Of a stretch of DNA of 64,000 nt, positions 32,746-58,423 are shown piece by piece. The notes beneath the pieces are model-generated. The model did no database searches and was not told the origin of the DNA. It worked only from the letters and a program-made list of their open reading frames with translations. The DNA is taken from the NCBI GenBank assembly GCA_963812085.1, contig CAWETL010000009.1, forward strand, positions 525,955 to 589,954, written 5' to 3'. The translations under genes and the position numbers were made by a program. How positions within the stretch are numbered: the stretch's first letter is position 1; every line of letters starts with the position of its first letter. This stretch comes from an uncultured Gemmatimonadales bacterium (GTDB taxonomy: Bacteria; Gemmatimonadota; Gemmatimonadetes; Gemmatimonadales; GWC2-71-9).

Positions 32746-34041
32746 GTGACAGCGCCTCGCCTTTACCCGCTCTTCTCCCTCGCCCTCACGCTTGGACTCG
32801 CCGCTCCGCTCGCGGGCCAGGCCGCGCTCCCGACCAACAACGACGCCGCCGTCAAGCGCGCCACGGCCGACGTGAAGGTCCTCGCCTCCGACCAGCTCGG
32901 CGGCCGCATGACCGGCTCGGCCGGCGCCGACACCGCCGCGGCCTACATGGCCCGCCGATTTGCCCAGAGCGGCCTGCAGCCGGCCCCCGGCGGGTGGTTC
33001 CAGGACTACACTGTGCCCAAGGAGGCGCCCGCCGTGCAGCAGGCCGGCCTCGGCGAGATCCACGGCAAGAACGTGATCGGCATCCTGCCGGGCAGCGACC
33101 CGGCGCTCCGCAACGAGACGGTCGTCGTGGGCGCGCACTACGACCACCTCGGCCTCGGCGGGTTCGGGGCGCTCGATCCCGACAGCACCGGACGGGTCCA
33201 CAACGGCGCCGACGACAACGCCTCGGGCTCGGCGGCCCTGCTCACGATCGCGGCCCGGCTCCGGGACGCGCACCTGGGCCGCACCGTGGTGTTCATCGCC
33301 TTCAGCGGCGAGGAGCTCGGTCTCCTCGGCTCGGACTACTACGTGAAGCACCCGCTCTACCCGCTCGCGTCCACCGAGGCGATGATCAACCTCGACATGG
33401 TGGGGCGCCTCCGGAACGACAAGCTGATCGTCTACGGCACCGGCACGGCCACCGAGTTCCCCGCCCTGCTCGACTCGCTCAACTGGTACGCCAAGTTCGA
33501 CCTGCATCCCCAGCCGGAAGGCTACGGACCGAGCGACCAGACCTCCTTCTACGCCGCCAAGGTGCCGGTCCTCCACCTGTTCACCGACCTGCACGCGGAC
33601 TACCACCGCAGCACCGACGACTGGGACAAGATCGACGCGGCCGGCCTGGTGCGGGTCGCGGATTTCGCGGCGGCCCTCGCGACCGAGTTCGCCAACCGTC
33701 CCGGCCGGCTGACCTTCGTGGACGTCCCGCCGCCGCAGCCCAAGGGCGGCGTCGCCGTCACCTCAGGCTATGGCGCCTATCTCGGCACCGTTCCCGACAT
33801 GGCCGCCGGTGACGTGGGCGGGGCCCGCATCACCGGGGTCTCCAAGGGCAGCCCCGCCGAGGTCGGCGGGCTCCTGGGCGGCGACATCATCACCAAGATC
33901 GGCGACTACGACGTCCCCGACCTTGTCGGAATGACGACCGCGCTGCGCGCCTACAAGCCGGGCGACAAGGTGGTGGTCGTGGTCCTCCGTGACGGCAAGC
34001 CGATGAGCTTCGACGTCACCCTCGGAAAGCGCGGCGGGTGA
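32746..34041 (+). CDS. Exported M28-family metallopeptidase with C-terminal PDZ domain
   Basis: Signal peptide. M28 motifs GAHYDHLG, GADDNASG and FSGEELGLLGS. The C-terminal region GGDIITKIGDYDV...VVVVLRDGK is PDZ-like. Confidence 0.88.
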   Translation: MTAPRLYPLFSLALTLGLAAPLAGQAALPTNNDAAVKRATADVKVLASDQLGGRMTGSAGADTAAAYMARRFAQSGLQPAPGGWFQDYTVPKEAPAVQQAGLGEIHGKNVIGILPGSDPALRNETVVVGAHYDHLGLGGFGALDPDSTGRVHNGADDNASGSAALLTIAARLRDAHLGRTVVFIAFSGEELGLLGSDYYVKHPLYPLASTEAMINLDMVGRLRNDKLIVYGTGTATEFPALLDSLNWYAKFDLHPQPEGYGPSDQTSFYAAKVPVLHLFTDLHADYHRSTDDWDKIDAAGLVRVADFAAALATEFANRPGRLTFVDVPPPQPKGGVAVTSGYGAYLGTVPDMAAGDVGGARITGVSKGSPAEVGGLLGGDIITKIGDYDVPDLVGMTTALRAYKPGDKVVVVVLRDGKPMSFDVTLGKRGG

Positions 34042-34499
34042 GCGTACCCGCGCTCGACGCGGAACGGCTGGTCGCGGCGCTCCGGAGCGCCTTTGCCCAC
34101 GAAGCCGGCCGGCAGGGGCTGCTCCAGCTCGCTGCCGACCGGATCCGGGCCGCCGGGCCGCCCTACACCTCCGTCTATCTCTACATGCTCCACGGCAAGG
34201 AACTGGTGCTGGAGGCGTTCAGCGGCCGGGTCACCGACCACACCCGCATCGCCGTCGGCACCGGCGTGTGCGGGACGGCGGTGGCCACCGGGCAGGACCA
34301 GAACGTCGGCGACGTCCAGGCCGTCGGGAACTACCTCGCCTGCAACCTCGAGACCCGCTCCGAACTCGTGGTCCTTATCCGCCGCGGGGCCACCGTCCTC
34401 GGCCAGATCGACATCGACAGCGACGTGCCCGACCCGTTCACGCCGGCGGAGCACGCCGCCGTCAAGCAGGTCGCGGACGCCCTCGCCGTCCTGCTGTGA
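34038..34499 (+). CDS. GAF-domain protein (free methionine-(R)-sulfoxide reductase-like)
   Basis: About 153 aa, single GAF domain. The stretches GTGVCGTAV, ACNLETRSELVV and GQIDIDS resemble the YebR/fRMsr family. GTGA overlap with the upstream gene. Confidence 0.65.
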   Translation: MSVPALDAERLVAALRSAFAHEAGRQGLLQLAADRIRAAGPPYTSVYLYMLHGKELVLEAFSGRVTDHTRIAVGTGVCGTAVATGQDQNVGDVQAVGNYLACNLETRSELVVLIRRGATVLGQIDIDSDVPDPFTPAEHAAVKQVADALAVLL

Positions 34500-35395
34500 G
34501 GGCCTGGTCCTCCTCCCGTTACTCCGTCGCCCTGCCGCCCGGCCACCGCTTTCCGATCGCGAAGTACCAGGCGGTCCGCGAAGGCGTGGTGGCCCGCGGC
34601 CTCCTCGAGGCCGGCGACATCCACGAGCCTGACCGCGTCGAGCGCACCGCGCTCGCGCTCGTCCACACCGACGATTACGTCTCGGCGATCCACGACGGCA
34701 CGCTCGGCGCCGCCGAGCAGCGTCGGCTCGGCTTCCCTTGGGGGCCCGGGCTCCGCGAACGCTCCCTCCGGACGGTCCAGGGCACCATCGAGGCCGCGCG
34801 GGACGCGCTCGACTGCGGCGCAGGGATCAACCTGGCCGGTGGCACGCACCACGCCTTCGCCGAGCGCGGCGAGGGCTTTTGCGTCTTCAACGACGTCGCG
34901 GTGGCTGCGCGCGTCCTCCAGCGCGAGGGGCGGGTCCAGCGGATCGCCGTGGTGGACCTCGACGTCCACCAGGGCAACGGCACGGCGCGCATCTTCCTGG
35001 GCGATCCCGACGTCTTCACCTTCTCCCTGCACGGCGCGCGGAACTACCCCTTCCATCGCGAGCAGAGCCGGCTGGACGTGGAGCTGCCGGACGGCGCCGA
35101 CGCCGCCGCCTACCTCGCGGCTCTCGACGCCCATCTCGACCGCGTGTTGGACGAGGCGGCGCCTGAGTTCGTCTTCTACCTGGCCGGCGCCGATCCCTAC
35201 GCCGGCGATCGCTTCGGCCGCCTCGGCGTGTCGATCGACGGGCTCCGCCAACGAGACCGCCGCGTCTTCGCGGCCTGCCGCCGCCGCGGGCTGCCCGTGG
35301 TCGTCACGCTCGCCGGTGGCTACGCCGAGCGGCTCGACGACATCGTGACCATTCACGCCAACACCGTGCAGGAACTCCGTGCCGCCTGTAGTTGA
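34496..35395 (+). CDS. Histone-deacetylase-superfamily (Zn deacetylase / acetylpolyamine amidohydrolase-like) protein
   Basis: Motifs GGTHHA, VDLDVHQGNG, AGADPYAGD and LAGGY. GTG start overlaps the GAF gene stop. Confidence 0.88.
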   Translation: MRAWSSSRYSVALPPGHRFPIAKYQAVREGVVARGLLEAGDIHEPDRVERTALALVHTDDYVSAIHDGTLGAAEQRRLGFPWGPGLRERSLRTVQGTIEAARDALDCGAGINLAGGTHHAFAERGEGFCVFNDVAVAARVLQREGRVQRIAVVDLDVHQGNGTARIFLGDPDVFTFSLHGARNYPFHREQSRLDVELPDGADAAAYLAALDAHLDRVLDEAAPEFVFYLAGADPYAGDRFGRLGVSIDGLRQRDRRVFAACRRRGLPVVVTLAGGYAERLDDIVTIHANTVQELRAACS

Positions 35396-36215
35396 GACCA
35401 CCCGCGTGGTCCGTGGGGTCGCCCTCTTCGAGCGCCGCGCCGGGAGCGGTCCCGCGACGGTGGTGCTGCACGGGGGCCCGGGCGCACACCACGACTACCT
35501 CCTCCCGGGCTTCGACACCCTCGCCGGGCGTCGCACGCTCATTTACTACGACCAGCGGGGCGGCGGCCGGTCTCCCGTGCCGCGGGAGGTGCCGGTCGGG
35601 TGGCGTGAACAGGTCGCCGACCTCGAGGCGCTGCGCGTCGTCTGGGGCCTCGAGCGACTCAGCATCGCGGGGTATTCCTGGGGCGCCTTGCTGGCCATGC
35701 TCTACGCCACGGAACACCCGGACCGTGTGGAGCGGATGGCGCTCGTCTCGCCGGCGCCGGCCTGGCGGTCGGCACGCGCGGAGTTCGAAGCCCGGTTCGC
35801 GGCGCGCACCATGGCGCCCGCGCTCCAGGAGGCGCGCGCCGCGCTCCGAAGCAGCGGGCTCCGCGAACGCGATCCGGAGGCGTACCAGCGCCGGACCTTC
35901 GAGCTGTCGGTGGCCGGCTACTTCCATGACCGGGCCAAGGTCGCCGGCCTCACTCAGTTCCGGGTGACGGGGCGCACCCAGCAGGAGGTCTGGGACAGCC
36001 TCGGCGAGTTCGACCTGCGCCCGGCCTTGGCCGCGCTCCGGGTGCCGGCGATCGTCCTCCACGGCGACGACGACCCGATTCCCGAGGCGTCCGCCCGCGC
36101 CGTGGCCGACGCGCTCCGCGCGCCGTTCCACCTGCTCAGTGCGTGCGGTCACGTGCCCTACGTCGAGGCCCCCGACGAATTCCGCCGCCTGCTCGATCCC
36201 TTCCTGCCGGCGTAG
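35379..36215 (+). CDS. Alpha/beta hydrolase (proline iminopeptidase-like)
   Basis: HGGPG oxyanion motif, nucleophile elbow GYSWG, and C-terminal CGHVPY containing the catalytic His. Confidence 0.8.
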   Translation: MPPVVETTRVVRGVALFERRAGSGPATVVLHGGPGAHHDYLLPGFDTLAGRRTLIYYDQRGGGRSPVPREVPVGWREQVADLEALRVVWGLERLSIAGYSWGALLAMLYATEHPDRVERMALVSPAPAWRSARAEFEARFAARTMAPALQEARAALRSSGLRERDPEAYQRRTFELSVAGYFHDRAKVAGLTQFRVTGRTQQEVWDSLGEFDLRPALAALRVPAIVLHGDDDPIPEASARAVADALRAPFHLLSACGHVPYVEAPDEFRRLLDPFLPA

Positions 36216-36258: not shown

Positions 36259-37119
36259 ATGACAGAGAATTCTCCGCGGAGCCGGATTGCCCTCGTTATT
36301 GGCTCCGGCGGCGTGAAGTGCGCGGCGGCGGTGGGGCTCCAGCAGGCGCTTCGGGACGAGGGAATCGAGATTGACCTGGTCGTCGGCTGCAGCGGCGGGG
36401 CCATCTACGCCACCGCAGCCGCGCTGCGCTGGACCGTCGACGAGACCATCGAGCAGACGCTCCAGCTCTGGACCCGGGACACGACCTCCCAGCCACGGCG
36501 CCTGGCCCTGCTCAAGGCGATGTTTCCGCGTCTGTTCGGGTTCTCGTCCGATTTTTCCTTCCGCGACGACCGCCTGCTCAATTCGCGCCTTCGGCAGGCC
36601 TTCGGGGTGCGCACCTTCGGCGACACCCGGATTCCGCTGTACATCACCGCCACCGACTTCAACAACGGTCAGCAGGTCGTGCTGTCGGAGGGCCTGCTTT
36701 GGGAAGCCGTGCGGGCGAGCATCGCCATTCCGCTGGTCTTCGCTCCCCGGCGCATCAACGACCGCCTCCTGATGGATGGCTTCCTCTCGGACCCCCTCCC
36801 GGTCAACGTGGCCATCCAGGAGCGGGCCGGAGTGATCCTGGCCATCGGCTTCGAGAGCCCTAACCTGCGGCGCTTCACCAGCCCGATGCGCGTGGGACTC
36901 CAGCTGACCAGCGTGATGACGAACAACCTCCTCCGCTCCCGTTTTGCCTTCCACAACCTTACGCACCACGCCGAGGTGATTCCCATCCTGCCCGAGTTCC
37001 GGAAGCAGGTCGGCATCTTCGACACGCGGCAGATCCCGTACGTCATCGAGGAGGGCCGGCGCGCCGCGCTGGCCCACATTCCGTACATCCGCCGCCTGAT
37101 GGCGGAGCCCGCCGCGTGA
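36259..37119 (+). CDS. Patatin-like phospholipase
   Basis: Oxyanion GSGGVKCAA, nucleophile GCSGG (GxSxG), and catalytic Asp in LMDGF. Confidence 0.88.
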   Translation: MTENSPRSRIALVIGSGGVKCAAAVGLQQALRDEGIEIDLVVGCSGGAIYATAAALRWTVDETIEQTLQLWTRDTTSQPRRLALLKAMFPRLFGFSSDFSFRDDRLLNSRLRQAFGVRTFGDTRIPLYITATDFNNGQQVVLSEGLLWEAVRASIAIPLVFAPRRINDRLLMDGFLSDPLPVNVAIQERAGVILAIGFESPNLRRFTSPMRVGLQLTSVMTNNLLRSRFAFHNLTHHAEVIPILPEFRKQVGIFDTRQIPYVIEEGRRAALAHIPYIRRLMAEPAA

Positions 37120-38357
37120 GCCGGGAGCCCGAAACCGCCCCGGCCCAGGTCCTGGTCGCCGATGACGTGGAAATGAACCGCGACCTGCTGGCCCGCCGGG
37201 TGCGCCGGCTGGGGCACGAAGTCACCATGGCCGAGGACGGCGTCCGAGCGCTCGAGCTGCTCAAGGCGCGCGACTTCGACGTGCTCCTCCTCGACATCAT
37301 GATGCCCAACATGAACGGGTATGAGGTGCTCGAGGCGATGGCGCTGGACGAACGGCTGCGCCGGGTGCCGGTGATCATGATCTCCGCGGTGGACGACAAG
37401 GAGAGCATCGCCCGCTGCATCGGTCTCGGCGCCGACGACTACCTGCCCAAGCCCTTCGACCCGGTGATCCTGCAGGCCCGGCTCGGCGCCAGCCTCGCCC
37501 GGAAGCGCCTGCACGACCGGGAGCAGCTCTACCAGAAGAGCCTCGAGCGAGAACTGGAAATCGGACGCGAGATCCAGGCGCATTTCCTGCCCGACAGCCT
37601 GCCGATCCTGCCGGGCTTCGACTTCGCCGCACGGCTTCGCTCGGCGCGGATGGTGTCCGGCGATTTCTACGACCTCTATCCCCTCGGCGGCGGGACCGAG
37701 GTGGTCGCGGTGGTGGGCGACGTCTGCGACAAGGGCGTCGGGGCGGCGCTCTTCATGGCCCTCTTCCGCTCCCTGCTGCGGGCGCTCACCGAGCAGTCGG
37801 ACGGCGCCCGGTGGAACGAGCGGGGCGCGAGCCGCGAGCGGCGGCGTGACGCGGGGACACGGACCGAGGCCGTCACCGGGCACCTGCTCCGCACTGTGAC
37901 CCTGGCCAACGATTACATCGCCGGCACGCACAGCCGCTCCAACATGTTCGCCACGGTGTTCTTCGCGATCGTCGACGCGGACTCGGGGCTGGTGCAGTAC
38001 GTGAACGCCGGCCATGAACCCCCGGCAGTCGTCGGACCCGCCGGCGTGCGGCGGCTGGAGCCCACCGGGCCCGCCCTCGGCCTCCTGCCCGGCCTCCCCT
38101 TCGTGGTGGGCGAGACCACGCTCGCGCCGGGAGAGACCCTCGTAGCGTGGACGGACGGCGTCACGGAGGCCCAGGCGACGGGCACCACCGAACTGTTCGG
38201 GGAGGAACGAACGCTGGCGGTCGCGGAGGGAACCGATGGAACCGCCGCCGAGCTGCTCGACCGGATGCTGGCGGTGGTGGACGCCTACGCCGCAGGCGCG
38301 GAGCAGGCGGACGACATTACCCTGCTGGCGGTGCGGCGGCACCGCGCGGGCGCTTAA
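37116..38357 (+). CDS. Response-regulator receiver fused to PP2C/SpoIIE Ser/Thr phosphatase (RsbU/RsbY/HsbR-phosphatase-like)
   Basis: The REC domain has VLVADD, LLLDIMMP and YLPKP. The SpoIIE domain has SGDFYD, VVGDVCDKGVGAALFM, NAGH, TDGVTEA and DDITLLAVR. GTGA overlap with the patatin gene. Confidence 0.9.
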   Translation: MSREPETAPAQVLVADDVEMNRDLLARRVRRLGHEVTMAEDGVRALELLKARDFDVLLLDIMMPNMNGYEVLEAMALDERLRRVPVIMISAVDDKESIARCIGLGADDYLPKPFDPVILQARLGASLARKRLHDREQLYQKSLERELEIGREIQAHFLPDSLPILPGFDFAARLRSARMVSGDFYDLYPLGGGTEVVAVVGDVCDKGVGAALFMALFRSLLRALTEQSDGARWNERGASRERRRDAGTRTEAVTGHLLRTVTLANDYIAGTHSRSNMFATVFFAIVDADSGLVQYVNAGHEPPAVVGPAGVRRLEPTGPALGLLPGLPFVVGETTLAPGETLVAWTDGVTEAQATGTTELFGEERTLAVAEGTDGTAAELLDRMLAVVDAYAAGAEQADDITLLAVRRHRAGA

Positions 38358-39151
38358 GCCTCGAAACTCCTTGCCGCCGCGTCCGCGTCGGGATAGAGCT
38401 TCAGGATGCTGGTGAATCCGCTGAGCTCGAGCACCTTCCGCACGTTGTCCCGCACCCCGGCCAATCGCACGTCGCCTCCGCGGCCTCGCGCATCCTTGAC
38501 CACCGCCAGGAGCACCCGGAGTCCGGCGCTGCTCGTGTAGTCCACCCCCTCCAGCGACACCACCATCCGGTGCCCGCCGTCGGCGACCTCGCCGCCAAGC
38601 ACGCGATTGAGTTCCGCCGAGGTCATGCCATCCACGTTGCCCTGCACGCGCGCGATCGTCACCTGCCCGCGGCGCTCCACTTCGATCTGCATAGAAAGGT
38701 GTCCCTGCATGATGGGAGAGGCCGATCCGGCGGAGCCGAATCGCTTGACCATGGTCAATTCATTGCCGGTGGCACCGAGGCTGCGGTGACGGATCTCGTC
38801 CATCACCTTTTCCACCAGGTGCCACCCCAGTCCACCGATCGGCCGGTCGGCCCACGGTGCGGTCAGGTCCGGCGTCGGGGCCATGTCGGGCGAGAAGGGT
38901 GCGCCCTCGTCGAGCACCGTCAACGTGAGCGCGCCCGGCTCGATCCGGGCGCGCAGGACCAGCGGCCCGGGCTGTCCCGCCGGGTAGGCGTGGTTGATCA
39001 CGTTGATGAGGACTTCTTCCGCCGCGAGCCGGATGTCGTGCTGGCCCTCGTCGCCGGCCCCCGCCTCGCGGGCGGCGCGGGTCGCGAGGTCGAGCAACTC
39101 GCCGAGGGACTCGAGCCGCGCGGTGGTCCGCGACAGCCGCACGAGCGTCAC
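38354..39151 (-). CDS. Fusion of RsbW/SpoIIAB-like anti-sigma Ser kinase (HATPase_c) with STAS anti-anti-sigma antagonist domain
   Basis: The N-terminal roughly 135 aa carry the N-box EEVLINVINHAY, G1 LDEGAPF and G2 GGLGWHL. With no intervening stop, the sequence ...KRFGSAGSASPIMQGHLSMQIEVERRG... leads into a STAS domain with the phosphorylatable-Ser motif VDYTSSAGLRVLL. GTG at 39151 overlaps the upstream stop (GTGA). Confidence 0.8.
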   Translation of the reverse strand: MTLVRLSRTTARLESLGELLDLATRAAREAGAGDEGQHDIRLAAEEVLINVINHAYPAGQPGPLVLRARIEPGALTLTVLDEGAPFSPDMAPTPDLTAPWADRPIGGLGWHLVEKVMDEIRHRSLGATGNELTMVKRFGSAGSASPIMQGHLSMQIEVERRGQVTIARVQGNVDGMTSAELNRVLGGEVADGGHRMVVSLEGVDYTSSAGLRVLLAVVKDARGRGGDVRLAGVRDNVRKVLELSGFTSILKLYPDADAAARSFEA

Positions 39152-40527
39152 GACGCGGTACGCCCCCGGGCGCAGGGTTCGACCAGGCCGGGAGTCGCGC
39201 CGAAGACAAGAGTAAAGACGTCCGCTTCCGCCGCCGGCCGCGATCCCAGGAATGCCGGAGCTCCGTTCGTTCCGCTCACGCACAGGTCCCCGACCTTCAC
39301 CGGGAAGCGGCTCCGCAGTTCCGACTCCAGCGGCTCCGTGCGGGCCGCGAGGCCCACCGCGGCGGCGGGCACCCGACCGCCGAACGCGGCCGCCGCCGCG
39401 ACCAGGTCCTTCTTCTTGACGATCTCCGGCTGGCCGGCGGCGAGCCGCAGCTCGGCGAGCCGGAGGGAATCGTCGCGCACCTGGAGGAGGCCGATCAGCG
39501 AAACCGTCGTCGGCGTGCGCTTGGTGCCGGTGAGCACCAGTTCGACCCGCGCGCCGCCTCCGGCCGGATGGACGCTCACCGATTGCACCGACAGGTCGGA
39601 CACCTTGCCGCCGCAGCCCGGCTTCACGGCGCAGGGACGTGCGCCGGCGAGCGCCGCCTGCACCTGCGCTGCGAGCTCCTTGCCGGGCACGTTCACCTCG
39701 AGCGGAAGCTCGAGGCCGGGAAGCGGCGTGCGCCCGGTGCCGACGGCCAGCGCGTTCCGCAGGCTGGACACCCGGACCGTGGCCCGAAGCCGCTGCTCCA
39801 CCGAGTCCCTGGCGCCGGCGGTGGCCGCGCGCGCCGTCACGGACGCCGCCACCGAATATCGCCCGCCCCGCGACAGCGTCGCCACGAACGTGTTGCCCGT
39901 CTGGGTGGGAGCGAGCTTCTGGCCGGCGCTGTCGGTCACGCTGAGCGCCCACTCGCCGGCGTCGAGTCCGGTCGTCTCGATCAGCAGCTGGTCCTGGTCC
40001 CCCGCGCCGCCGCCGAGGTCGATCCACGCCTGCCCGCGTGCCATCGTCGCGGCCTGCGCGTCGGTGCGGTTGATCGTGGTGCAGCTGAGCGTGGCCTTGG
40101 TGTGCCAGTAGCCCCGCCGTGCCATGGCGATGGCGCTCAGGGTGAAGCCCGCCGAGCGGGCGGTCCGGCTCACGTCCGGCGTGACGGTCGATACCGACCG
40201 CGCGGACGAAGCGCGCCAGTCCTTGCCGCACGCCTTGCTCTGTTCGTCTCCGGTGGCGACCTCCCTGAGCTCGAACGTCTGGCCCCGAACCCCCGCGACC
40301 TCCCGGAAGTACTTCGACCCGGCGGCGGCGAATCCGTCCACCCAGCCGTTGCCGGTCACGGCGCCGTCGAACGACGGCGCCACGCCCACCGGAATCCGGA
40401 CGGGAGGAACGTCGGACGGCGGCGCGACCGGGGCCGGTGCGGGCGCCGTGCCGCCGGCGCTGCTGCAGGACAGGGCGCCGACGAAGAGCAGCGGGGCGAG
40501 GCGGATGCCCCGGGACATGCGGATCAT
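39148..40527 (-). CDS. Exported hypothetical protein (possible lipoprotein), 459 aa
   Basis: Signal peptide MIRMSRGIRLAPLLFVGALSCSS. Varied composition with several Cys and no recognised domain. Overlaps both neighbouring genes by 4 nt. Confidence 0.6.
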   Translation of the reverse strand: MIRMSRGIRLAPLLFVGALSCSSAGGTAPAPAPVAPPSDVPPVRIPVGVAPSFDGAVTGNGWVDGFAAAGSKYFREVAGVRGQTFELREVATGDEQSKACGKDWRASSARSVSTVTPDVSRTARSAGFTLSAIAMARRGYWHTKATLSCTTINRTDAQAATMARGQAWIDLGGGAGDQDQLLIETTGLDAGEWALSVTDSAGQKLAPTQTGNTFVATLSRGGRYSVAASVTARAATAGARDSVEQRLRATVRVSSLRNALAVGTGRTPLPGLELPLEVNVPGKELAAQVQAALAGARPCAVKPGCGGKVSDLSVQSVSVHPAGGGARVELVLTGTKRTPTTVSLIGLLQVRDDSLRLAELRLAAGQPEIVKKKDLVAAAAAFGGRVPAAAVGLAARTEPLESELRSRFPVKVGDLCVSGTNGAPAFLGSRPAAEADVFTLVFGATPGLVEPCARGRTAS

Positions 40528-40895
40528 GGCGTCGCTCCGAGCAGCGTGGTGATCTTGAGCAGCAGGCGTTCCATTTCCACCGGCTTCGTGTCGTAGTCGT
40601 CACAACCCGCCTCGATCGCGCGCTCCCGGTCGCCGGCCATGGCGTGCGCCGTCAGCGCGATCACCCGCGCGCCGGCGAGCTCCGGGTCCGCCCGCAACCG
40701 CCGCGTGGCTTCCCAGCCGTCGATACCGGGCAGGCTCATGTCCATCAGGATGAGGTCGGGACGCTCGCTCCGGGCGAGCGCGAGGCCCTGTTCTCCATCT
40801 TCGGCCGCCACGACGGTGTACCCCCGGCGCGTCAGCCGCCGGGACAGCATGTCGCGGTTGAGTTCGTTGTCCTCGACCAGCAGGATCTTCGCCAC
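40524..40895 (-). CDS. Single-domain CheY-like response regulator
   Basis: KILLVEDNELNR, LILMDMSLPGIDG, and the conserved Lys in YDTKP. Confidence 0.92.
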   Translation of the reverse strand: MAKILLVEDNELNRDMLSRRLTRRGYTVVAAEDGEQGLALARSERPDLILMDMSLPGIDGWEATRRLRADPELAGARVIALTAHAMAGDRERAIEAGCDDYDTKPVEMERLLLKITTLLGATP

Positions 40896-40898
40896 GGG

Positions 40899-43340
40899 CT
40901 ACGCCTCCCCGGCGCTGGAGCCGGCCAGCAGGCGCTTGAGTTCGCCCACGAGGGCCTCGCTGTCGAGATGGTCCTTGTCGAACACCCGCGCCACGTGAAT
41001 CGAGAGGTGCTCCCGCTCGGCCGGCGTGAGGTCGTGCGCCGTGACGACGACGACCGGCACCTGCTGGCCGCCTTCGCGCGCATGGAGCGCGGCGAGGAAT
41101 TCGAATCCGTTCATTTCGGGCATCATCAGGTCGAGGAGGATCAGGTCCGGCATCCCGCCCCCGAGCGCGGCGAGGCCCTCGACGCCGTTGCCGGCCTCGA
41201 TCACCTCCCACGACTCCCCGCGCAGCAGCTCGCGCATCCGGTCCCGCGCCGCCACGTCGTCGTCCACGACGAGCGCCCGCCCGCCCTTGCCGTCCCGGTT
41301 GAAGCGGCGGATCACGCGGATCAGCCGCTCGCGGTCGACCGGCTTGGTGAGGTACTCCGCCGCCCCCAGCGAAAAGCCCATGTTCTTGTCGTCGATGATG
41401 GTCAGCATCACGACAGGAATCCCCGCGAGGTCCGGGTCGGCCTTGAGCGCCCGCAGCACGTTCCATCCGTCGCTGCCCGGCATCATGACGTCGAGCGTGA
41501 TGACCGAGGGCTTCAGCTGGCGCGCCAGTTCGAGCCCCTCCTCGCCTCCCAGCGCGGGGATGACCGCGATCCCCTCCTTTTCGAGCGTGCGGCGGACCAT
41601 GTCGTGCATGGCGGGGTCGTCGTCGATCACCAGCACCATCCCCTTGGGGCCCGCCATCAGCGCCACGTGGTCGGAGGTGACTGGACGCGCCGCCACCTCC
41701 GCCGGCAGGACGAGCGTGAAGGTGGAGCCCTGTGTCGGCGCGCTGTCCACGGTCACCGTCCCGCCCATGAGCTCGGCGAACCGCTTGGTGATCGTCAGGC
41801 CCAGCCCGGTGCCGCCGTACTTGCGCGTGGTCGAGGCGTCCGCCTGGGTGAAGGGCTGGAAGAGGCGCCCCACCTGCTCCGGCGTCATGCCGATGCCGCT
41901 GTCCTGCACGGCGAGCCGGATCCAGCGGCGGCCGTCGGCCACCTCGGTCCGCACCCGCAGCGTCACCGTCCCCTGTTCGGTGAACTTCGACGCGTTGCTG
42001 AGCAGGTTGAACAGCGACTGCCGCAGTTTCGTCAGGTCGGCGTGGATGGTCCCGACGTCGTCGGGGCAGTCGATGACGAGCGTGTTGCCCTTCTGCTTCA
42101 CCAGCGGCTGGATGGTGCTCACCACGTCGTCGAGCATGCCGCGGACCGCGAAGGTCTCGAGGTAGAGGTCCATCCGCCCGGCCTCGACCTTGGAGAGGTC
42201 GAGGATGTCGTTGATCAGCTGGAGCAGGTGCCGTCCGGCGCCGTGAATCTTCCGGAGGTCGGGCACCAGGTCGTCGAGCTGGCGGTCCTCCGCCTCCTCT
42301 TCGAGTATTTCGCTGTAGCCGATGATGGCGTTGAGGGGGGTGCGAAGCTCGTGGCTCATGTTGGCCAGGAACCGGCTCTTGGCCTTGTTGGCCACGTCGG
42401 CCGCCTCCCGGGCCTGGCCCAGGGCCGAGTTGCTTTCCTCCAGCTCGCGGGTCCGCAGTTTGACCTTGTCCTCGATGGTCGCGACGGTCTGCCGGAGGTC
42501 CGCCGCCATCCGGTTGAACGCCCCGGCCAGCGCGCCCACCTCGTCGCGGCTCCGGACCTTCACCTCCTGGGGCCACTCCCCCTCGCCGAGGCGCGCCACC
42601 GCGGTGTGGATGGCGCGGAGGGGCCGCAACATTCGGCGCGTCAGCACGAAGAGCAGGAGCGAGGCGCCGAGGGCGACGAGGAGCACGATCGGCGTCAGCC
42701 CTTCCGCCACCTGCCGCGACGCCGCCTTGGCGGCGGCGGCGAACGGCGCGTAGGGAGTGGCAGCGTCGAACAGGCCGACGATCGAATCGGTCCCGGCGGC
42801 CCGGATCGGCCAGTAGAGGGCCCAGTCTTCCTCGCCGCCGACGGCCGGGTTGCCGTCCGCCAGCACGGAGGCGGCCTTCGCGGGCATCAGCGTGAGGGGG
42901 CCTGCCGTGCGGGTCGCAGTGTCGCTGGTGGCCAGGCGCACCGCGCGGCCGTCGCCCACCCGCTGGGCGATGCTGAGTCGGGTGCCCGTCAGGCGCGACA
43001 ACTCGACAAGCAGGGCGGTCACTTCCGCGTTGCCAAGGATCTTCTCGTCGCCCTTGTACAGTTGGGCGGCGAGCGATTCGGCCGGAGTGGAGGGTCCGGC
43101 GTCGAATGCGACCGGCGCGGCGGGGACCAGGTGCCAGCTGCCGGGAAAGCGCTCCTCGAAGATGCGCTGCGCGATGCCGAGGTTGGTGGTGAGCTGCTGG
43201 CTCGCCTGGTGGAGCTGCAGCTGGACGAGTTCGGCGTCCGAGCGCTTCAATGCGAACCAGCCGGTGAGGGCCAGGGCGCCGATCACCACCGCCGAGACGA
43301 CCAGGGCCACCTTGGTGGCGATGCTGCGGGTCTTGACCAA
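40899..43340 (-). CDS. Hybrid sensor histidine kinase (periplasmic sensor domain, HAMP, HisKA, HATPase_c, two REC domains)
   Basis: TM1, then a roughly 200-aa extracytoplasmic region, then TM2. HAMP ([13 protein letters not shown]...AFNRMAADL), H-box [16 protein letters not shown], and N/G boxes ([20 protein letters not shown]). Two receivers (VLVIDDD...LDVMMP and ALVVDDD...LDLMMP). Confidence 0.92.
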
Positions 43341-43432: not shown

Positions 43433-44104
43433 ATGGGCCGACCGACGCCGTATGAACTTGTATTCTCCGACCTCGCCACCGACCGATTCCCCGAGATCCG
43501 GAAGGCGCTTGACGCCGCCGCGGCCGACCCGCACGACCGGGATGCCTTCCTGGTGACCCTGCCGGCCATGACCCTCCTCCGGGAACTCCGCCCCGACGAG
43601 GAAGGCGCCGGCGAGGGGGTGCGGGAGCTCGCCGCCCTGGCCCATCACGCCTACCTGTACTGGGCAGGTGGGCTCCAGACCTGGGCGCACACCCCGGTCT
43701 CCGCCCGCGCGTGCCTCGCCGCCGGTCCGGCAGGTGCCGGCGGGCCGCCGGAGGCGGGATACATTCAGCTCCCGGAGCGCCTGGTGTGGGCATCGCTCGG
43801 CCCGGACGGTCCGTGGGAGCCGCTCGACGGCTGCTTTGTCCACGCCGGGCCGGACGGCGCCCTCCGCGTGCTCGGGATCTTCGGCCTCCATCCCTCGCGC
43901 ATGGGCTTTACCGTGGCCGAGGCGGTGGGGACGCCGGGACGGCTGACCGAGCGGGCCGACGGCGCTCCGCTGTTCGCACCGGCCCTCGAGGGCGGCGAAC
44001 TCGCGGGGCTCCACGCCCTGGTGGATCCCGGTGAACTCGTGGAACTCGCCGGCCGGATGCTCGAGGGGGTGCCGCGCCCCGCAGGACACCAGGAGGTCCC
44101 GTGA
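43433..44104 (+). CDS. Hypothetical protein, translationally coupled to polX
   Basis: 223 aa with balanced composition and no recognised family. Its stop overlaps the polX GTG start (GTGA at 44101-44104). Confidence 0.5.
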   Translation: MGRPTPYELVFSDLATDRFPEIRKALDAAAADPHDRDAFLVTLPAMTLLRELRPDEEGAGEGVRELAALAHHAYLYWAGGLQTWAHTPVSARACLAAGPAGAGGPPEAGYIQLPERLVWASLGPDGPWEPLDGCFVHAGPDGALRVLGIFGLHPSRMGFTVAEAVGTPGRLTERADGAPLFAPALEGGELAGLHALVDPGELVELAGRMLEGVPRPAGHQEVP

Positions 44105-45834
44105 CTGACCGGATGGAGAAGCGGGCCGTGGCCGACGCGCTGGAGCAGGTCGCGTCCTTCATGGAGCTGAAGGGCGAGAATCCCTTCCGCGTCCGGACCT
44201 TTCGCACCGTCGCCCGGGTCGTGAGCGGCCTGCCAGCGACCCTTCGGCAGGCCCTCGACGACGGCTCCCTCGCGGCCACCAAGGGCGTGGGGCCCGCCAC
44301 CCTCGAGGCGGTCAATGAGCTCGCCGCCACCGGCCGTTGCGGCCTCCTCGAGGAACTCCGCGACCAGGTCCCCGCCGGACTGGTGGAGATGCTGGCCATC
44401 TCCGGGCTCGGCGTGGCCAAGATTCGCCAGATTCACGACACCCTCGGCATCGACTCGCTCCCGGAGCTGGAGGCGGCGGCCGCCGACGGCCGGCTGGCCG
44501 CGCTCCCCCGCTTCGGCCAGAAGACCGCCGACAACATCCGGAAGAGCATCGCCTTCCTGCGGCAGGCCAGCGCGTTCCGGCTCGCCCACCACGCCGCGGA
44601 GGAATCTCGCGCCCTGGTCGAGGCGCTGGCACGGGTGCCCGGCGTGCTGAGCGCCACCGCCGCGGGAGAGGTCCGGCGCCGCACCGAGGTCGTCAGCGAG
44701 CTGGTGATCGTGCTGATCGCCGAGGTGCCCGCGGCGGAGCTGTTCGCCCGGTTGGGCCAGGTGCCGGGAGTGCACGAATTCGCGGGGCGGGACGAGCGGC
44801 AGATCACGCTCCGGTTCGCCGGCGGCACGAGTGCCCAGGTGATCGTCACCCCGGCGGGCAACGCGGGGGCGGTCCTGGTGCAGGCGACCGGGAGCGAAGC
44901 CCACCTGCGGGACCTGGAGGCGCTGGCCTCCGCCCAGGGCTGTTCGCTCCGCGGTGCCGCGCTCTGGCGTGGCAGCGAATTCGTCGCCACGCCGGACGAG
45001 GAGACCCTCTACCGCGCCCTCGGCCTCGCCTGGATTCCGCCCGAACTCCGTGAGGGGCGCGGCGAATGCGAGGCCGCCGCGTCGGGAGCGCTCCCCACCC
45101 TGCTGGAGCAGGAGGGGCTGCAGGGCTTCCTGCATTGCCACACCGAGTACTCCGACGGCTCCAACACGGTGGCCGACCTGGCGCGCGGAGTCCGCGACGC
45201 CGGCTACGCGTGGGTCGGGATCACCGACCACAGCCAGTCCGCCGCCTACGCCGGCGGGCTCTCGCCAGCATCGCTGGTCCGCCAGCGCGAGGAGATCGCA
45301 CGGGTGCGCGCGACGATGCCGGGCTTCGGCATCCTCCACGGGGTGGAGGCCGATATCCTGGCCGACGGGCGGCTCGACTACGACGACGAAGTCCTCGCGG
45401 GACTCGATTTCGTCATCGGCTCGATTCACAGCCGCTTCAACCTGGGCGGCCCCGAGATGACCGCCCGCGTGCTCGCCGCGCTCGACAACCCGTATCTGAG
45501 CATCCTCGGCCACCCGACCGGGCGCCTGCTCCTCTCCCGCGACGCCTACGCGATCGACCTCGACGCGATATTCGAGAAGGCCGGGGCACTCGGCGTGGCG
45601 ATCGAGATCAACGCCGACCCGCACCGTCTCGACCTCGACTGGCGGGTGCTCCGCTCTGCGCGGAAGCACGGCGTCATGATTTCCATCGGGGCCGACGCGC
45701 ACAATCTCGCCGGGCTCGGCAACGTGGCGTTCGGCGTCGGCATCGCGCGCAAGGGGTGGCTGGGGCCGGCGGAAATCCTGAACACCCGGGACGCCGAGGG
45801 TTTTCTGGCGTTCGCGCGCGCCAGGCGCCCGTAG
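44101..45834 (+). CDS. polX: Family X DNA polymerase with C-terminal PHP phosphoesterase domain
   Basis: N-terminal HhH/Pol-beta-like region (NPFRVRTF, GVGPAT and ISGLGVAKI). PHP motifs HCHTEYSDGS, ITDHS and SIHS. Confidence 0.9.
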   Translation: MTDRMEKRAVADALEQVASFMELKGENPFRVRTFRTVARVVSGLPATLRQALDDGSLAATKGVGPATLEAVNELAATGRCGLLEELRDQVPAGLVEMLAISGLGVAKIRQIHDTLGIDSLPELEAAAADGRLAALPRFGQKTADNIRKSIAFLRQASAFRLAHHAAEESRALVEALARVPGVLSATAAGEVRRRTEVVSELVIVLIAEVPAAELFARLGQVPGVHEFAGRDERQITLRFAGGTSAQVIVTPAGNAGAVLVQATGSEAHLRDLEALASAQGCSLRGAALWRGSEFVATPDEETLYRALGLAWIPPELREGRGECEAAASGALPTLLEQEGLQGFLHCHTEYSDGSNTVADLARGVRDAGYAWVGITDHSQSAAYAGGLSPASLVRQREEIARVRATMPGFGILHGVEADILADGRLDYDDEVLAGLDFVIGSIHSRFNLGGPEMTARVLAALDNPYLSILGHPTGRLLLSRDAYAIDLDAIFEKAGALGVAIEINADPHRLDLDWRVLRSARKHGVMISIGADAHNLAGLGNVAFGVGIARKGWLGPAEILNTRDAEGFLAFARARRP

Positions 45835-46497
45835 GTGGCCCGGGAATCCGCCTCCGCCCGCCGTGTCCGCGCCCGGCGGGTGCTGGCCGGGCTGGAGGCC
45901 GCCTATCCAGAGGCGCACTGCGCCCTCGAGCACGCGGACGCCTACCAATTGCTCGTCGCCACGATCCTCTCGGCGCAGTGCACCGATGCGCGCGTCAACC
46001 TCGTCACTCCGGCGCTCTTTGCCCGCTACCCCGACGCGCGCGCCCTGGCCCGGGGCCCGCAGGACGACGTGGAAGCGCTCATCCGCTCGACCGGCTTCTT
46101 CCGGAACAAGGCGAAGAACCTCATCGCGATGGCGCAGGCCGTGGTGGCACGGCACGGCGGCCGGATCCCGGACACGATGGAGGCGCTCCGCGCCCTGCCG
46201 GGTGTCGGCCGCAAGACGGCCAACGTCGTCCTCGGCAACGCGTTCGGGCGGAACGAAGGTGTCACGGTGGACACCCACGTGGGCCGGATCGCCCGGCTGC
46301 TGCGCCTCACCGCCGAGGACGATCCCGAAAAGGTGGAGCAGGACCTGATGACGCTCTTTCCGCAGGACCGATGGACGCTACTCTCCCACCTCCTGATCAG
46401 TCACGGTCGCGCCGTCTGCGTGGCGCGCCGGCCCCGCTGCGACGCCTGCGTGCTCGCCGCCGACTGTCCGAGCGCGACGGGGAGGCCACGTGGCTGA
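45835..46497 (+). CDS. nth: Endonuclease III (DNA glycosylase/AP lyase)
   Basis: HhH-GPD motif LPGVGRKTANVVL, catalytic region VDTHV, and 4Fe-4S cluster loop C-x6-C-x2-C-x5-C in CVARRPRCDACVLAADC. Confidence 0.93.
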   Translation: MARESASARRVRARRVLAGLEAAYPEAHCALEHADAYQLLVATILSAQCTDARVNLVTPALFARYPDARALARGPQDDVEALIRSTGFFRNKAKNLIAMAQAVVARHGGRIPDTMEALRALPGVGRKTANVVLGNAFGRNEGVTVDTHVGRIARLLRLTAEDDPEKVEQDLMTLFPQDRWTLLSHLLISHGRAVCVARRPRCDACVLAADCPSATGRPRG

Positions 46498-52101: not shown

Positions 52102-53489
52102 ACGACGCCGCTCTCTCCGCCCTCGGCGAGCGGGCCCTCGCCCGGGCAGGCGGCGCGCGGTTCGTGCCCGGCAATGCTGCGCGGCTCCTGCTGGATGGCC
52201 CCGAGGCGTTCCCCGCGATGCTCGACGCCGTCCGGCGCGCCGAGCGCTGGGTGCATTTCGAGAACTACATCGTGCGGGACGACGCGACGGGCTGGCAGTT
52301 CGCGGAAGCCCTTGCGGAGCGCGCGCGCGAAGGCGTTTCGGTGCGCCTCCTGTGCGACTGGTTCGGCAGCCTGGGCCTGGGGCGCCGCATGGCGAGCCAC
52401 CTTCGCGAGGCGGGCGTCGAGCTCCGGAGGTTCAATTCGCCCCGTTTCCTCGACCTGCTCGGCAACCTGTCCCGGGACCACCGCAAGCTCGTCGTGACTG
52501 ACGCGGGCTCGGCGATCCTCGGCGGACTCTGCATCGGCGACGAATGGGCCGGCGACCCGGCGAAGAACGTCGAGCCGTGGCGGGACACCGCCATCGAGCT
52601 GACCGGACCGGCCGTGGTGACGCTCGACCGGGCGTTCGAGCGGATCTGGGCGCTCGCCGGCGGTCGCATCCCGGACGACGAGCGTGCGACCGAACAGGCG
52701 GCCACCGGCACCGCCGACGTCGGCGTCGTCGCCGGCGAGCCCTACCGCGGCCGCATCCTGCGGATCGTCGAGCTGCTCGCCGCCGGCGCCCTGGACCGGA
52801 TCTGGATCACCGATGCCTACCTGGTGGCCCCCCGCTCACTGTTCCAGTCGCTGCTCGACGCGGCGCGGGGAGGCGTGGACGTGCGGCTCCTCGTCCCCGG
52901 CTCCAGCGACCTCCCGGTGGTCCGGGACCTGACACGGATCGGGTACCGCGAACTCCTGCGGGCGGGCGTGCGCATCTTCGAGTGGGAAGGGCGGATGCTG
53001 CACGCCAAGACGATCGTCGCCGACGGGGAGTGGTGCCGGGTGGGGTCGAGCAATCTCAACGCCTCCAGCCTGGTCGGGAACTACGAACTCGACGCCATCG
53101 TGCACGATCGCGCGCTCGGCACCGCGCTCGAGGCCCAGTTCCGCCGCGACACGGCGCGCAGCGCCGAGGTGGAATTCCGGCCGCTCTCGGCACCGCCGCG
53201 CCTCGGGCGCCTGTTCCCAGGCACGCTGGGTCGTGACCTGCCGGACATACCGCCGGCCCGCCACCCCCGTCGGTTCCGCGAACAGCGCCGACGGACCGGA
53301 CTCGCGCTCCGCGGAGTCGCCACCGCGGCCCGCCGGTCGGTGTTCGCGCCGGTCGCCGCTGGACTCACCTTCCTCGGGCTGCTGTTCCTCGTCCTGCCCC
53401 GGACCATGGCCGTGATCGTGGCCGCGCTGTGCGCCTGGCTCGCGCTGGGGGCGGCGGTCGAGGCGTTCCGTCGCCGGGCGGAGCGCTGA
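52098..53489 (+). CDS. Phospholipase D-family protein (cardiolipin synthase ClsB-like) with C-terminal TM segments
   Basis: Two HKD motifs: HRKLVVTD and HAKTIVAD...GSSNLN. GTGA overlap with the HD gene. Confidence 0.85.
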   Translation: MNDAALSALGERALARAGGARFVPGNAARLLLDGPEAFPAMLDAVRRAERWVHFENYIVRDDATGWQFAEALAERAREGVSVRLLCDWFGSLGLGRRMASHLREAGVELRRFNSPRFLDLLGNLSRDHRKLVVTDAGSAILGGLCIGDEWAGDPAKNVEPWRDTAIELTGPAVVTLDRAFERIWALAGGRIPDDERATEQAATGTADVGVVAGEPYRGRILRIVELLAAGALDRIWITDAYLVAPRSLFQSLLDAARGGVDVRLLVPGSSDLPVVRDLTRIGYRELLRAGVRIFEWEGRMLHAKTIVADGEWCRVGSSNLNASSLVGNYELDAIVHDRALGTALEAQFRRDTARSAEVEFRPLSAPPRLGRLFPGTLGRDLPDIPPARHPRRFREQRRRTGLALRGVATAARRSVFAPVAAGLTFLGLLFLVLPRTMAVIVAALCAWLALGAAVEAFRRRAER

Positions 53490-53532
53490 CCATGTCCCGC
53501 CGCCCCCCCTTGCTCAACGCTTTCCGGGACCT

Positions 53533-54090
53533 GTGCGTATGGCTCCCGTGACCGATGCCGAACTGGCATCCCGGGCGGCCTCCGGAGATGATGAGGCCTT
53601 CGGGGCGCTCGTCGAGCGGCACGCGGCACGGGCCCGCCGGGTGGCGCGGGCGGCGCTGCTGGAGCCGCACGACGCCGACGACGCGGTGCAGGACGCGCTC
53701 TTTTCGGCCTGGCGCGCGATCGACCGCTTCGACCCGGCCCGACCCTTCGGTCCCTGGTTTCTCCGGATCGTGGTGAACGCCGCCGCGGACCTGCGGCGGC
53801 GGCGGTCGCTCCGGCGGACTGAAGAGGTTCCGGCGGCGGCGGCCGACCCGGGCCCGTCGCCGGAACGGGACACCGACCGGGCGCTCCTTCGGGAGGCGCT
53901 CGACAAGGCGCTGGCCACGCTGCCGGAACGCCGCCGGATCGCGCTCGTGCTCCACGACGCCGAAGGGTATGGGCACGACGAGATCGCGACGATGCTGAAC
54001 GTGCCGGTGGGCACGATCCGATCCGATGTCTTTCATGCCCGCCGCGCCATGCGCGCGGCGCTCCCCGCACTGGGAGAGACTGACCGATGA
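53533..54090 (+). CDS. ECF-type RNA polymerase sigma-70 factor
   Basis: Region 2 (DAVQDALFSAWRAIDRFD, FGPWFLRIVVN) and region 4 (LPERRRIALVLHDAEGYGHDEIATMLNVPVGTIRSDVFHARR). Confidence 0.92.
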   Translation: MRMAPVTDAELASRAASGDDEAFGALVERHAARARRVARAALLEPHDADDAVQDALFSAWRAIDRFDPARPFGPWFLRIVVNAAADLRRRRSLRRTEEVPAAAADPGPSPERDTDRALLREALDKALATLPERRRIALVLHDAEGYGHDEIATMLNVPVGTIRSDVFHARRAMRAALPALGETDR

Positions 54091-54431
54091 GCGACACGAA
54101 CGACTTCGACCAGGACCGCGACGAGGCCCTCGGCGCGCTGCTTCGGGGCCACCTCTCCGCCGCCGATGACGCGGCCTTCGCGGCACGGATGCGCGATGAG
54201 GCCGTCGCCACCGCGCAGGCGGGCGACTGGAGCGCGGTGGCCCACTGGGCGCTGCCGGGCCTGGTCGCCGCCGCCCTGCTGATCGCCGCGCTGGGCGCCG
54301 CTGTCGGGCGCGCCATGCCGGCGTCCACCGCGCGCACCGCGTCCGGATCGACGGCCGGGTCGCTGACCGAGCTCGCGAGCGACAGCACACAGGCGGGCGG
54401 CGGTGCGCTGCTCGCGGTCATGAGTTACTGA
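54087..54431 (+). CDS. Putative anti-sigma factor (single TM)
   Basis: ATGA overlap with the sigma gene. 114 aa with one TM segment (WALPGLVAAALLIAALGAAV). The call is made by position; I recognised no zinc-finger motif. Confidence 0.55.
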   Translation: MSDTNDFDQDRDEALGALLRGHLSAADDAAFAARMRDEAVATAQAGDWSAVAHWALPGLVAAALLIAALGAAVGRAMPASTARTASGSTAGSLTELASDSTQAGGGALLAVMSY

Positions 54432-54450
54432 GCAGAAGGAGTCACTCCCG

Positions 54451-54849
54451 ATGTCCAAGTCCACGCGCACAGCCACCCTCCTGCTGGTGGCGGCCTTCCT
54501 GCTCGGCGCCCTGGCCGGCGGGGCGGCGTTCTCGCTCGCCGCCCGCGGGCGGGGCATGGGGCCGGGTGGGCACTCGGCGAACTCCTCGGGGTACCTCTCC
54601 CGGCTGTCGAAGGATCTCGACCTGACGCCCGTCCAGCGCGACAGCGTCGCCGCCATCCTCAAGCGCTATGAGCCCCGGATGGATTCCATCTGGCAGGATA
54701 TCCGCCCGCGGTTTGACACCCTTCGGGGCGAGTTGCGTACGAACATCAACGCCCAGCTCACGCCGGACCAGCAGCGTCACTATGCCGAACTGCTCGAGCG
54801 CCACGACGCCGAGCGCCGAACCAGGGATTCCTCGAATGCGCCTCGCTAG
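54451..54849 (+). CDS. Periplasmic Spy/CpxP-family (LTxxQ) protein
   Basis: Signal/TM segment at the N-terminus. Two LTxxQ motifs (LDLTPVQRD and AQLTPDQQRH). AAGGAG RBS. Confidence 0.75.
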   Translation: MSKSTRTATLLLVAAFLLGALAGGAAFSLAARGRGMGPGGHSANSSGYLSRLSKDLDLTPVQRDSVAAILKRYEPRMDSIWQDIRPRFDTLRGELRTNINAQLTPDQQRHYAELLERHDAERRTRDSSNAPR

Positions 54850-56140: not shown

Positions 56141-56886
<746 letters not shown>

Positions 56887-56888
56887 GA

Positions 56889-58421: not shown

Positions 58422-58423
58422 CC

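Follow-up and report, generated by a model that had tools for sequence, protein, structure and literature searches.

A partner-switching cassette co-conserved with a patatin-like phospholipase gene in Gemmatimonadales and other bacteria

A sigma factor is the usual target of the partner switches known so far, and the handful of other outputs are each regarded as noteworthy. Here we describe a partner-switching locus in DNA from an uncultured Gemmatimonadales bacterium. The locus is carried on a stretch of 64,000 nucleotides (GenBank assembly GCA_963812085.1, contig CAWETL010000009.1, positions 525,955 to 589,954), hereafter called the window, and all window coordinates refer to this stretch. 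The G+C content of the window is about 70%, and its closest named relatives are metagenome-assembled genomes of Gemmatimonadales. A first-pass annotation, made from the letters alone, had recognized five genes at 37116-43340 that together hold the phosphatase, kinase, and STAS components of a partner switch, and had described the output as missing.

Gene content and organization of the locus

Pfam searches bear out the five genes recognized earlier. On the plus strand, the gene at 37116-38357 encodes a 413-amino acid (aa) protein that joins a receiver domain to a SpoIIE/PPM-type PP2C phosphatase domain (Response_reg and SpoIIE, the latter with an E value of 4e-42). This protein is called REC-PP2C below. 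The remaining four genes are on the minus strand. At 38354-39151, a single open frame of 265 aa fuses an RsbW/SpoIIAB-type serine kinase (HATPase_c_2, E 3e-27) to a STAS domain (E 1e-18). The gene at 39148-40527 encodes an exported, beta-rich lipoprotein of 459 aa that belongs to no Pfam or NCBIfam family. A stand-alone CheY-like receiver of 123 aa (Response_reg) is encoded at 40524-40895, and a hybrid sensor histidine kinase of 813 aa with the Pfam order HAMP-HisKA-HATPase_c-REC-REC is encoded at 40899-43340. A sixth gene, located on the plus strand at 36259-37119, adjoins the left edge of the interval that was first noted and lies outside it. Its product is a patatin-like phospholipase of 286 aa (Pfam Patatin, E 9e-31).

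The minus-strand genes are as tightly coupled as had been claimed. A 3-nucleotide (nt) gap separates the hybrid kinase gene from the stand-alone receiver gene, which overlaps the lipoprotein gene by 4 nt. Another 4-nt overlap (GTGA) joins the lipoprotein gene to the kinase-STAS gene. On the plus strand, the patatin stop codon overlaps the GTG start codon of REC-PP2C, and the two genes are translationally coupled. The REC-PP2C and kinase-STAS genes converge, and one TTAA (38354-38357) is common to both stop codons. The convergent transcripts would overlap. There is no intergenic space for a terminator at this junction, and the identical 4-nt overlap is present in two related loci (L001 and L002). 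No promoter-like site was detected in a scan for promoters and terminators, and terminators were not in excess; the scan is uninformative on operon structure.

The earlier description of a complete partner-switching set (PP2C phosphatase, RsbW-type kinase, and STAS) wired to four receivers also holds, and the catalytic and phospho-acceptor motifs are intact. When the translations were inspected by eye, all four receivers were found to carry the acidic pocket, the Asp, the Thr or Ser, and the Lys.

Conserved features of the switch enzymes

The REC-PP2C motifs GDFYD, DVCxKGVGAAL, NxGH, TDG, and DDxT, as well as Asp60 of its receiver, recur in 90% or more of 72 homologs from the gene cassette described below. 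The sole full-length match of this protein in the PDB is Pseudomonas aeruginosa RssB (3eq2/3f7a). Among homologs of the kinase-STAS protein, the N-box residues E46 and N50, the G1 residue D81, and the G2 segment G106-G109 are invariant. The STAS motif YTSSAG (Y205 to G210) is likewise invariant, both in 14 and in 25 homologs. In an AlphaFold2 (AF2) model of the kinase-STAS protein, which has a mean confidence (pLDDT) of 85.8, a stretch of about 11 disordered residues links two halves whose folds match those of SpoIIAB (TMt 0.83) and SpoIIAA/RsbV (about 0.9). The predicted template modeling score (pTM) of 0.76 for this two-domain model hints at a defined docking of both domains.

In most related loci, the kinase and STAS domains are encoded by two adjacent genes. 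They are fused in the Gemmatimonadales clade of the window and in a few other lineages, and this fusion is a lineage-specific joining of neighboring genes. The partition of kinase plus STAS in one protein had been considered unexplained. This is no longer the case, given the adjacent genes in most lineages and the precedent for fusion in Rv1364c (PMC9138534). The RsbW3 protein of Mycobacterium smegmatis was considered as another precedent and was rejected because it is a 194-aa RsbW homolog.

Where the kinase and STAS genes are separate, 49 of 60 loci have both in the same frame, and in many of these only a single stop codon stands between them (junctions in L022-L074). This pattern is probably a ranking bias of tblastn when used with a fused query and not a biological signal. 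Programmed readthrough is a less likely alternative.

A conserved cassette in diverse bacteria

Relatives of the kinase/STAS pair were found in 310 GTDB species when one genome was scanned per species. The lineages include Gemmatimonadota, Chloroflexota, Acidobacteriota/Thermoanaerobaculia, and Rhodothermales, and also Burkholderiales (Variovorax, Ottowia) and Xanthomonadales (Luteimonas, Lysobacter). To survey the gene content, 80 retrieved loci were searched with hidden Markov models (HMMs) built for this analysis. A patatin gene is located no more than 3.5 kb from the STAS gene in 57 of the 61 loci with enough sequence, and a PP2C gene is near STAS in 58 of the 61. A receiver gene lies just upstream of the kinase gene in 46 of 59 loci. 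Of 59 informative loci, 42 encode a histidine kinase core upstream in the same orientation, and several others have one downstream. The modal order, all on one strand, is histidine kinase (with or without a receiver), receiver, kinase, STAS, patatin in one or two copies, and REC-PP2C.

This order is retained in part by distant members. In loci L003 and L005-L008, whose kinase-STAS proteins are 41-47% identical to that of the window, Pfam gene tables give the order kinase-STAS, patatin (one or two copies), and SpoIIE. The flanking genes of these loci are unrelated, and the input domains of their PP2C proteins are none, a receiver, or 7TM-PAS. A reciprocal search that started from the patatin protein led back to the cassette, with 3 of 3 homologs whose contigs were inspected (56-63% identity) encoded within it, one of them alongside a PP2C with a cyclic nucleotide (cNMP)-binding domain. 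Because the flanking genes vary between lineages, the cassette appears to be a self-contained unit.

These data change the view of what is conserved. The five genes of the first-pass annotation are not the unit; the conserved one-strand unit comprises the histidine kinase, receiver, kinase, STAS, patatin, and REC-PP2C genes. A comparison of gene neighborhoods had been proposed as a check on that annotation. The switch genes and the histidine kinase and receiver genes co-occur in most loci, and the 459-aa lipoprotein is found in one clade only.

Several loci depart from the modal order. In L087 there is an additional STAS-patatin pair without a kinase (14167-15361), and in L092 the order is kinase-patatin-STAS-patatin (6486-9289). 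These two arrangements hint that, within the cassette, no two genes are more tightly linked than STAS and patatin. In eight loci (L053, L055, L058, L061, L062, L065, L071, and L081), the PP2C gene is upstream of kinase-STAS-patatin, mostly with two patatin copies. This variant set is mainly from Chloroflexota, with L061 and L081 labeled as a delta-proteobacterium and a member of Bacteroidetes. Several of its loci have an extra kinase-only paralog further upstream, and no receiver or histidine kinase was detected nearby.

The patatin-like phospholipase as candidate output

The patatin-like protein of the window lacks a signal peptide and is cytoplasmic. Three motifs are preserved in it: GxGxxxC (oxyanion), GCSxG (nucleophile), and DG (catalytic Asp). 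Across 100 cassette patatins, GxGxxxC, VGCSxG, and DG are conserved in at least 95%. Judged from these motifs, the cassette patatins look active, with the Ser-Asp catalytic dyad kept. They are 56-67% identical between lineages, and this conservation exceeds that of the kinase-STAS pair.

The proposal that the output of the locus is missing is not upheld by these findings. The patatin gene abuts the REC-PP2C gene, its co-conservation nearly equals that of PP2C itself in the survey, and the reciprocal search gives the same association. Therefore, the "missing output" is most likely the patatin-like phospholipase. In an Anaerolineales relative (L003/L004, 7128-9985), genes for a prokaryotic diacylglycerol kinase and for an alpha/beta-hydrolase/AMP-binding fusion precede the cassette. 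These lipid-metabolism neighbors would fit an output that acts on lipids.

In the searchable literature, no publication was found that connects patatin with partner switching, STAS, RsbU/V/W, or anti-sigma antagonists. A cassette that combines a two-component-controlled partner switch with a patatin-like lipase is apparently undescribed.

Searches for sigma factors and Hpt domains

The absence of a sigma factor and of a histidine phosphotransfer (Hpt) domain, which the first-pass annotation had asserted for the locus, was borne out by Pfam scans and by jackhmmer searches of about 92 loci. Pfam detects no Sigma70 or Hpt domain in the genes of the locus or in their neighbors between 32.7 and 48.2 kb. 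Neither domain was detected in the other scanned genes of the window (30.6-32.7, 48.2-51.4, and 52.1-53.4 kb being outside the scan), with the exception of one extracytoplasmic function (ECF) sigma factor. This gene, at 53416-54087 on the plus strand, encodes Sigma70_r2 and Sigma70_r4_2 domains, lies about 10 kb away, and is the sole sigma gene detected among the scanned window segments. It is followed by genes for a Metal_resist protein and for OEP, HlyD, and MacB-FtsX efflux components (54424-59638). The ECF sigma factor is probably unrelated to the cassette. To our knowledge, it is not of the kind that RsbW-type proteins bind.

Jackhmmer searches with Escherichia coli RpoS and FliA gave no match in the about 92 loci, and no sigB-like gene was found there. 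A search with RpoE recovered only the ECF sigma factor of the window at 53.4 kb and a marginal match in L007 (E 5e-4).

The input side of the switch

The hybrid kinase has a transmembrane segment, a periplasmic region of roughly 180 aa, a second transmembrane segment, and then the HAMP, HisKA, HATPase_c, and two receiver domains. Its H-box reads SHELRTPLN in the translation.

The stand-alone receiver is 64% identical to a receiver that is fused to the N terminus of a kinase-STAS protein (P0036) and 67% identical to one fused in the same manner to a kinase (P0053). By sequence, the free receiver is an ortholog of these kinase-fused receivers. Such receiver-kinase fusions occur within the same cassette (L090 and L100). 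These gene fusions indicate that the free receiver and the serine kinase act together and that the second receiver, in REC-PP2C, controls the phosphatase. We infer that the stand-alone receiver is a regulator of the serine kinase.

The lack of an Hpt domain had been presented as a puzzle. However, the cassettes of some relatives carry non-hybrid histidine kinases (L091, and the second histidine kinase of L100). Direct His-to-Asp transfer would be enough there, so the absence of Hpt is no paradox.

The lipoprotein carries a signal peptide, and seven of its Cys residues, namely Cys21 of the lipobox and six others, are invariant in its homologs. Its AF2 model is confident (pLDDT 80.7) and beta-rich, and a Foldseek comparison of this model with the PDB gave no meaningful fold match (best TM score about 0.15). 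An exhaustive profile search of 1.84 billion representatives yielded only 41 clusters. The protein is confined to one Gemmatimonadales clade, its gene is always positioned between the receiver and the kinase, and it is present only alongside a periplasmic histidine kinase sensor domain of the window type. A function as an accessory envelope co-sensor is plausible but no more than a guess.

Rearrangement of the cassette in the clade of the window

An inversion of patatin-REC-PP2C is found only in one Gemmatimonadales clade, the same one that has the lipoprotein, and it gives rise to the convergent layout. The window is a clade-specific rearrangement of the conserved unit, in which patatin-PP2C was inverted and a lipoprotein gene was inserted. 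In three loci (L028, L075, and L076), both the inversion and the lipoprotein are present, yet kinase and STAS are unfused. This suggests that the kinase-STAS fusion came later.

Upstream of the inverted segment, at 32746-36215 on the plus strand, genes for an M28-PDZ peptidase, a GAF protein, an HDAC-like deacetylase, and an alpha/beta-hydrolase run into patatin-REC-PP2C. The genes of this cluster are joined by overlaps or short gaps and are syntenic throughout the clade, and the cluster could form one operon with the lipase gene. On the other side of the locus, divergent from the hybrid kinase gene, are genes for a conserved 223-aa hypothetical protein without a Pfam family, PolX (HHH-PHP), and endonuclease III (43433-46497, plus strand). 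This group is also syntenic in the clade.

A proposed mechanism and its alternatives

The interpretation that we favor, and hold to be probable though far from certain, is that the locus is a rearranged form of a conserved cassette in which an RsbU/V/W-type switch is set by two-component signaling and is partnered by a patatin-like phospholipase of the cytoplasm in place of a sigma factor. According to this proposal, the hybrid kinase would sense an envelope signal, perhaps with the co-transcribed 459-aa lipoprotein as an accessory sensor in the clade of the window. Its His would then pass phosphate directly to two receivers, and Hpt would be unnecessary. The stand-alone receiver would govern the RsbW-like kinase domain, and the receiver of REC-PP2C would govern the phosphatase. 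Together, the serine kinase and PP2C would set the phosphorylation state of the YTSSAG serine of STAS (S207 or S208). As a result, kinase-STAS would change its partner: The lipase may be held or released by the kinase face, or it may be bound by unphosphorylated STAS. This change of partner would turn phospholipid hydrolysis or remodeling on or off.

A number of observations weigh against this interpretation. The link between the lipase and STAS or the kinase is one of co-occurrence, and could mean co-regulation alone. The 80 loci were picked by similarity to a fused query, and they are phylogenetically related, so the counts do not represent independent events. Among the top 120 homologs of the patatin protein, none is fused to STAS, kinase, or PP2C. 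In the clade of the window, the lipase gene is on the strand opposite kinase-STAS and stands behind the four-gene hydrolase/GAF cluster. Furthermore, two close relatives of the window locus (L001/L016 and L015) retain all of the other genes, and patatin is absent at the site. In these loci the kinase-STAS protein is 74-80% identical and the synteny is the same, but the interval from the alpha/beta-hydrolase gene to the REC-PP2C gene holds no patatin gene. The switch can thus be maintained when no lipase gene adjoins it. Finally, jackhmmer searches with the Hpt domains of ArcB, BarA, and RcsD found none, but these are only three E. coli seeds that a divergent Hpt domain could escape.

The two relatives that have the switch but no lipase gene at the site would fit a classical anti-sigma switch, in which the RsbW-like kinase sequesters a sigma factor whose gene is at another place in the genome, and patatin is co-transcribed cargo or a member of the regulon. 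The kinase half of the fusion is structurally equivalent to the anti-sigma factor SpoIIAB/RsbW, and unlinked sigma targets are known, one of them being RpoS for Shewanella CrsR. HsbR/HsbA acting on RpoS is another (PMC6482189). However, neither the scanned window segments nor the about 92 related loci yielded a group-3 sigma gene, and the position of patatin between STAS and PP2C in several phyla is hard to square with an unrelated passenger. We regard the anti-sigma explanation as unlikely. The same co-occurrence data that point to the lipase as a partner would also fit a scheme in which the lipase is a direct substrate: The RsbW-like kinase would phosphorylate patatin and PP2C would dephosphorylate it, with STAS as a competing pseudo-substrate or regulator. 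Consistent with this possibility, the kinase and PP2C appear from their motifs to be catalytically competent, and in Anabaena the phosphorylated STAS domain belongs to the regulated enzyme itself (PMC13555669). Nevertheless, the phospho-site motif of STAS is invariant, and the patatin protein has no STAS-like segment, with PF01734 as its only Pfam match. RsbW-family kinases phosphorylate STAS serines, which also counts against a lipase substrate. The chance that this scheme is correct seems small to us.

Patatin effectors that degrade membranes are triggered by signaling modules in some anti-phage systems, such as CapV in cyclic oligonucleotide-based anti-phage signaling systems (CBASS), and the cassette might be a conflict system of this type. 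The patatin of the window weakly matches PADLOC models for phospholipase effectors (34 bits) and for a CBASS lipase (19 bits). In contrast, no switch protein matches a PADLOC model (kinase-STAS, PP2C, and the lipoprotein all give none), the cassette is situated among housekeeping genes with clade-level synteny, and its patatin is highly conserved across phyla, unlike fast-evolving defense genes. A role in defense is thus very improbable. This reading was dropped because the PADLOC scan yields generic phospholipase matches only. The cassette is unlisted in PADLOC.

We continue to favor a phospholipase as the partner of the switch, with co-occurrence as the only evidence for direct control of the lipase. 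If the lipase is indeed a conserved partner, then it would extend partner switching to direct post-translational control of membrane phospholipid hydrolysis. Experiments are feasible, since the about 310 species with relatives of the switch include cultured strains of Variovorax, Ottowia, and Luteimonas, among them Variovorax soli, V. davisae, Ottowia thiooxydans, and Luteimonas sp. 8-5.

Relationship to rssA and rssB

In E. coli, the patatin-like gene rssA directly precedes rssB, which encodes a receiver and a truncated PPM domain. This is the order seen in the window, where patatin (36259-37119) is immediately upstream of REC-PPM (37116-38357). In Pseudomonadaceae, rssB encodes an active PPM and has the STAS gene rssC as its partner (PMC12143880, PMC12923157), which is the same pairing of REC-PP2C and STAS as in the cassette. 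There are also clear differences. The PPM domain of E. coli RssB is inactive as well as truncated, and rssAB is without a kinase and STAS. In addition, E. coli RssB is an adaptor that delivers RpoS to ClpXP, whereas no RpoS-like gene is linked to the cassette.

RssA is the best named NCBIfam family for the cassette patatins, being the top family for the window protein and, among six proteobacterial copies, the only family to reach E ≤ 1e-10. The window proteins score 66 bits with the RssA model (cut-off 272), 79 bits with that of Pseudomonas RssB (700), and 72 bits with that of enterobacterial RssB (329). Proteobacterial members of the cassette score only 66-106 bits. Overall, the scores span 66-83 bits against the cut-off of 272 and 79-106 against that of 700, and all are far below the equivalog cut-offs. 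Alignments of the NCBIfam RssB models extend along the whole of REC-PP2C. When used as a query, the cassette patatin HMM gives 101.5 bits for RssA versus 29.8 for YjjU, the other patatin of E. coli. PlpD, which is represented in the PDB, scores similarly to RssA. Orthology with E. coli RssB in the PPM half was considered and set aside because the alignment covers the receiver domain only.

This resemblance between RssA/RssB and the cassette is suggestive of shared ancestry, but it is not proof. It is possible that E. coli rssA-rssB is a vestige of the cassette. A broader and more doubtful idea, which we put forward tentatively, is that in an ancient, phylum-spanning switch a cytoplasmic phospholipase is gated directly, through partner switching, by STAS, by the RsbW-like kinase, or by both, which would place membrane lipid turnover under two-component control, and that enterobacterial rssA-rssB and pseudomonad rssB-rssC are decayed remnants of this switch. 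If true, it would provide a functional context for the long-unexplained rssA and would suggest that a phosphatase controlling a lipase was the ancestor of the RssB adaptor. The cassette thus offers a testable reason for the presence of a patatin gene, rssA, beside rssB in E. coli.

Comparison with known partner-switching systems

The RsbU/RsbV/RsbW and SpoIIE/SpoIIAA/SpoIIAB systems of Bacillus subtilis use the same PPM phosphatase, GHKL serine kinase, and STAS protein, and the catalytic and phospho-site motifs are conserved. The cassette differs from RsbU/V/W in lacking a cognate group-3 sigma factor, which is usually co-encoded there. Moreover, the kinase and STAS of the window form one polypeptide, the input arrives via receivers, and patatin is an extra, co-conserved gene.

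Separate phosphatase and kinase enzymes, each with its own receiver, also set the cassette apart from switches of the HsbR type, where one protein holds REC, PP2C, and kinase and is controlled by a single receiver. Vibrio fischeri SypE-SypA and Shewanella CrsR-CrsA share that arrangement, with REC, PP2C, and kinase in one single-receiver protein that acts on a STAS protein. This split design, with one receiver per enzyme, therefore contrasts with single-receiver HsbR, SypE, and CrsR. The HptB-HsbR-HsbA system of P. aeruginosa (PMC6482189) resembles the cassette in that a receiver sets the balance of serine kinase and PP2C on STAS, and in that the output can be something other than a sigma factor from the same locus. 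SypE-SypA and CrsR-CrsA share both features. The cassette differs from these systems in having no Hpt and a lipase as its candidate output.

The RsbK-RsbY system of Bacillus cereus (PMC9912610) is similar on the input side, with a hybrid kinase and a REC-PP2C that feed a kinase/STAS switch without Hpt. RsbK-RsbY is located in the sigB operon and controls SigB, whereas the window has a second, stand-alone receiver tied to the serine kinase and has no sigma factor. Rv1364c of Mycobacterium tuberculosis (PAS-PP2C-kinase-STAS; PMC9138534) likewise has kinase and STAS in the same polypeptide, and its STAS domain is phosphorylated by its own kinase domain. Rv1364c also fuses the phosphatase and the sensor, and it acts on SigF. 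In contrast, the PP2C of the window is separate, convergently encoded, and regulated by a receiver.

A precedent from 2026 for an enzyme as the output is provided by Anabaena, in which the PP2C protein HenR acts with the STAS-glycosyltransferase All4160 (PMC13555669). As in the cassette, a phospho-switch of PP2C and STAS is used, and it regulates an enzyme instead of a sigma factor. In Anabaena, STAS is fused to the glycosyltransferase and the kinases are unlinked, whereas in the cassette STAS is fused or adjacent to the kinase and the candidate enzyme is a separate patatin-like lipase.

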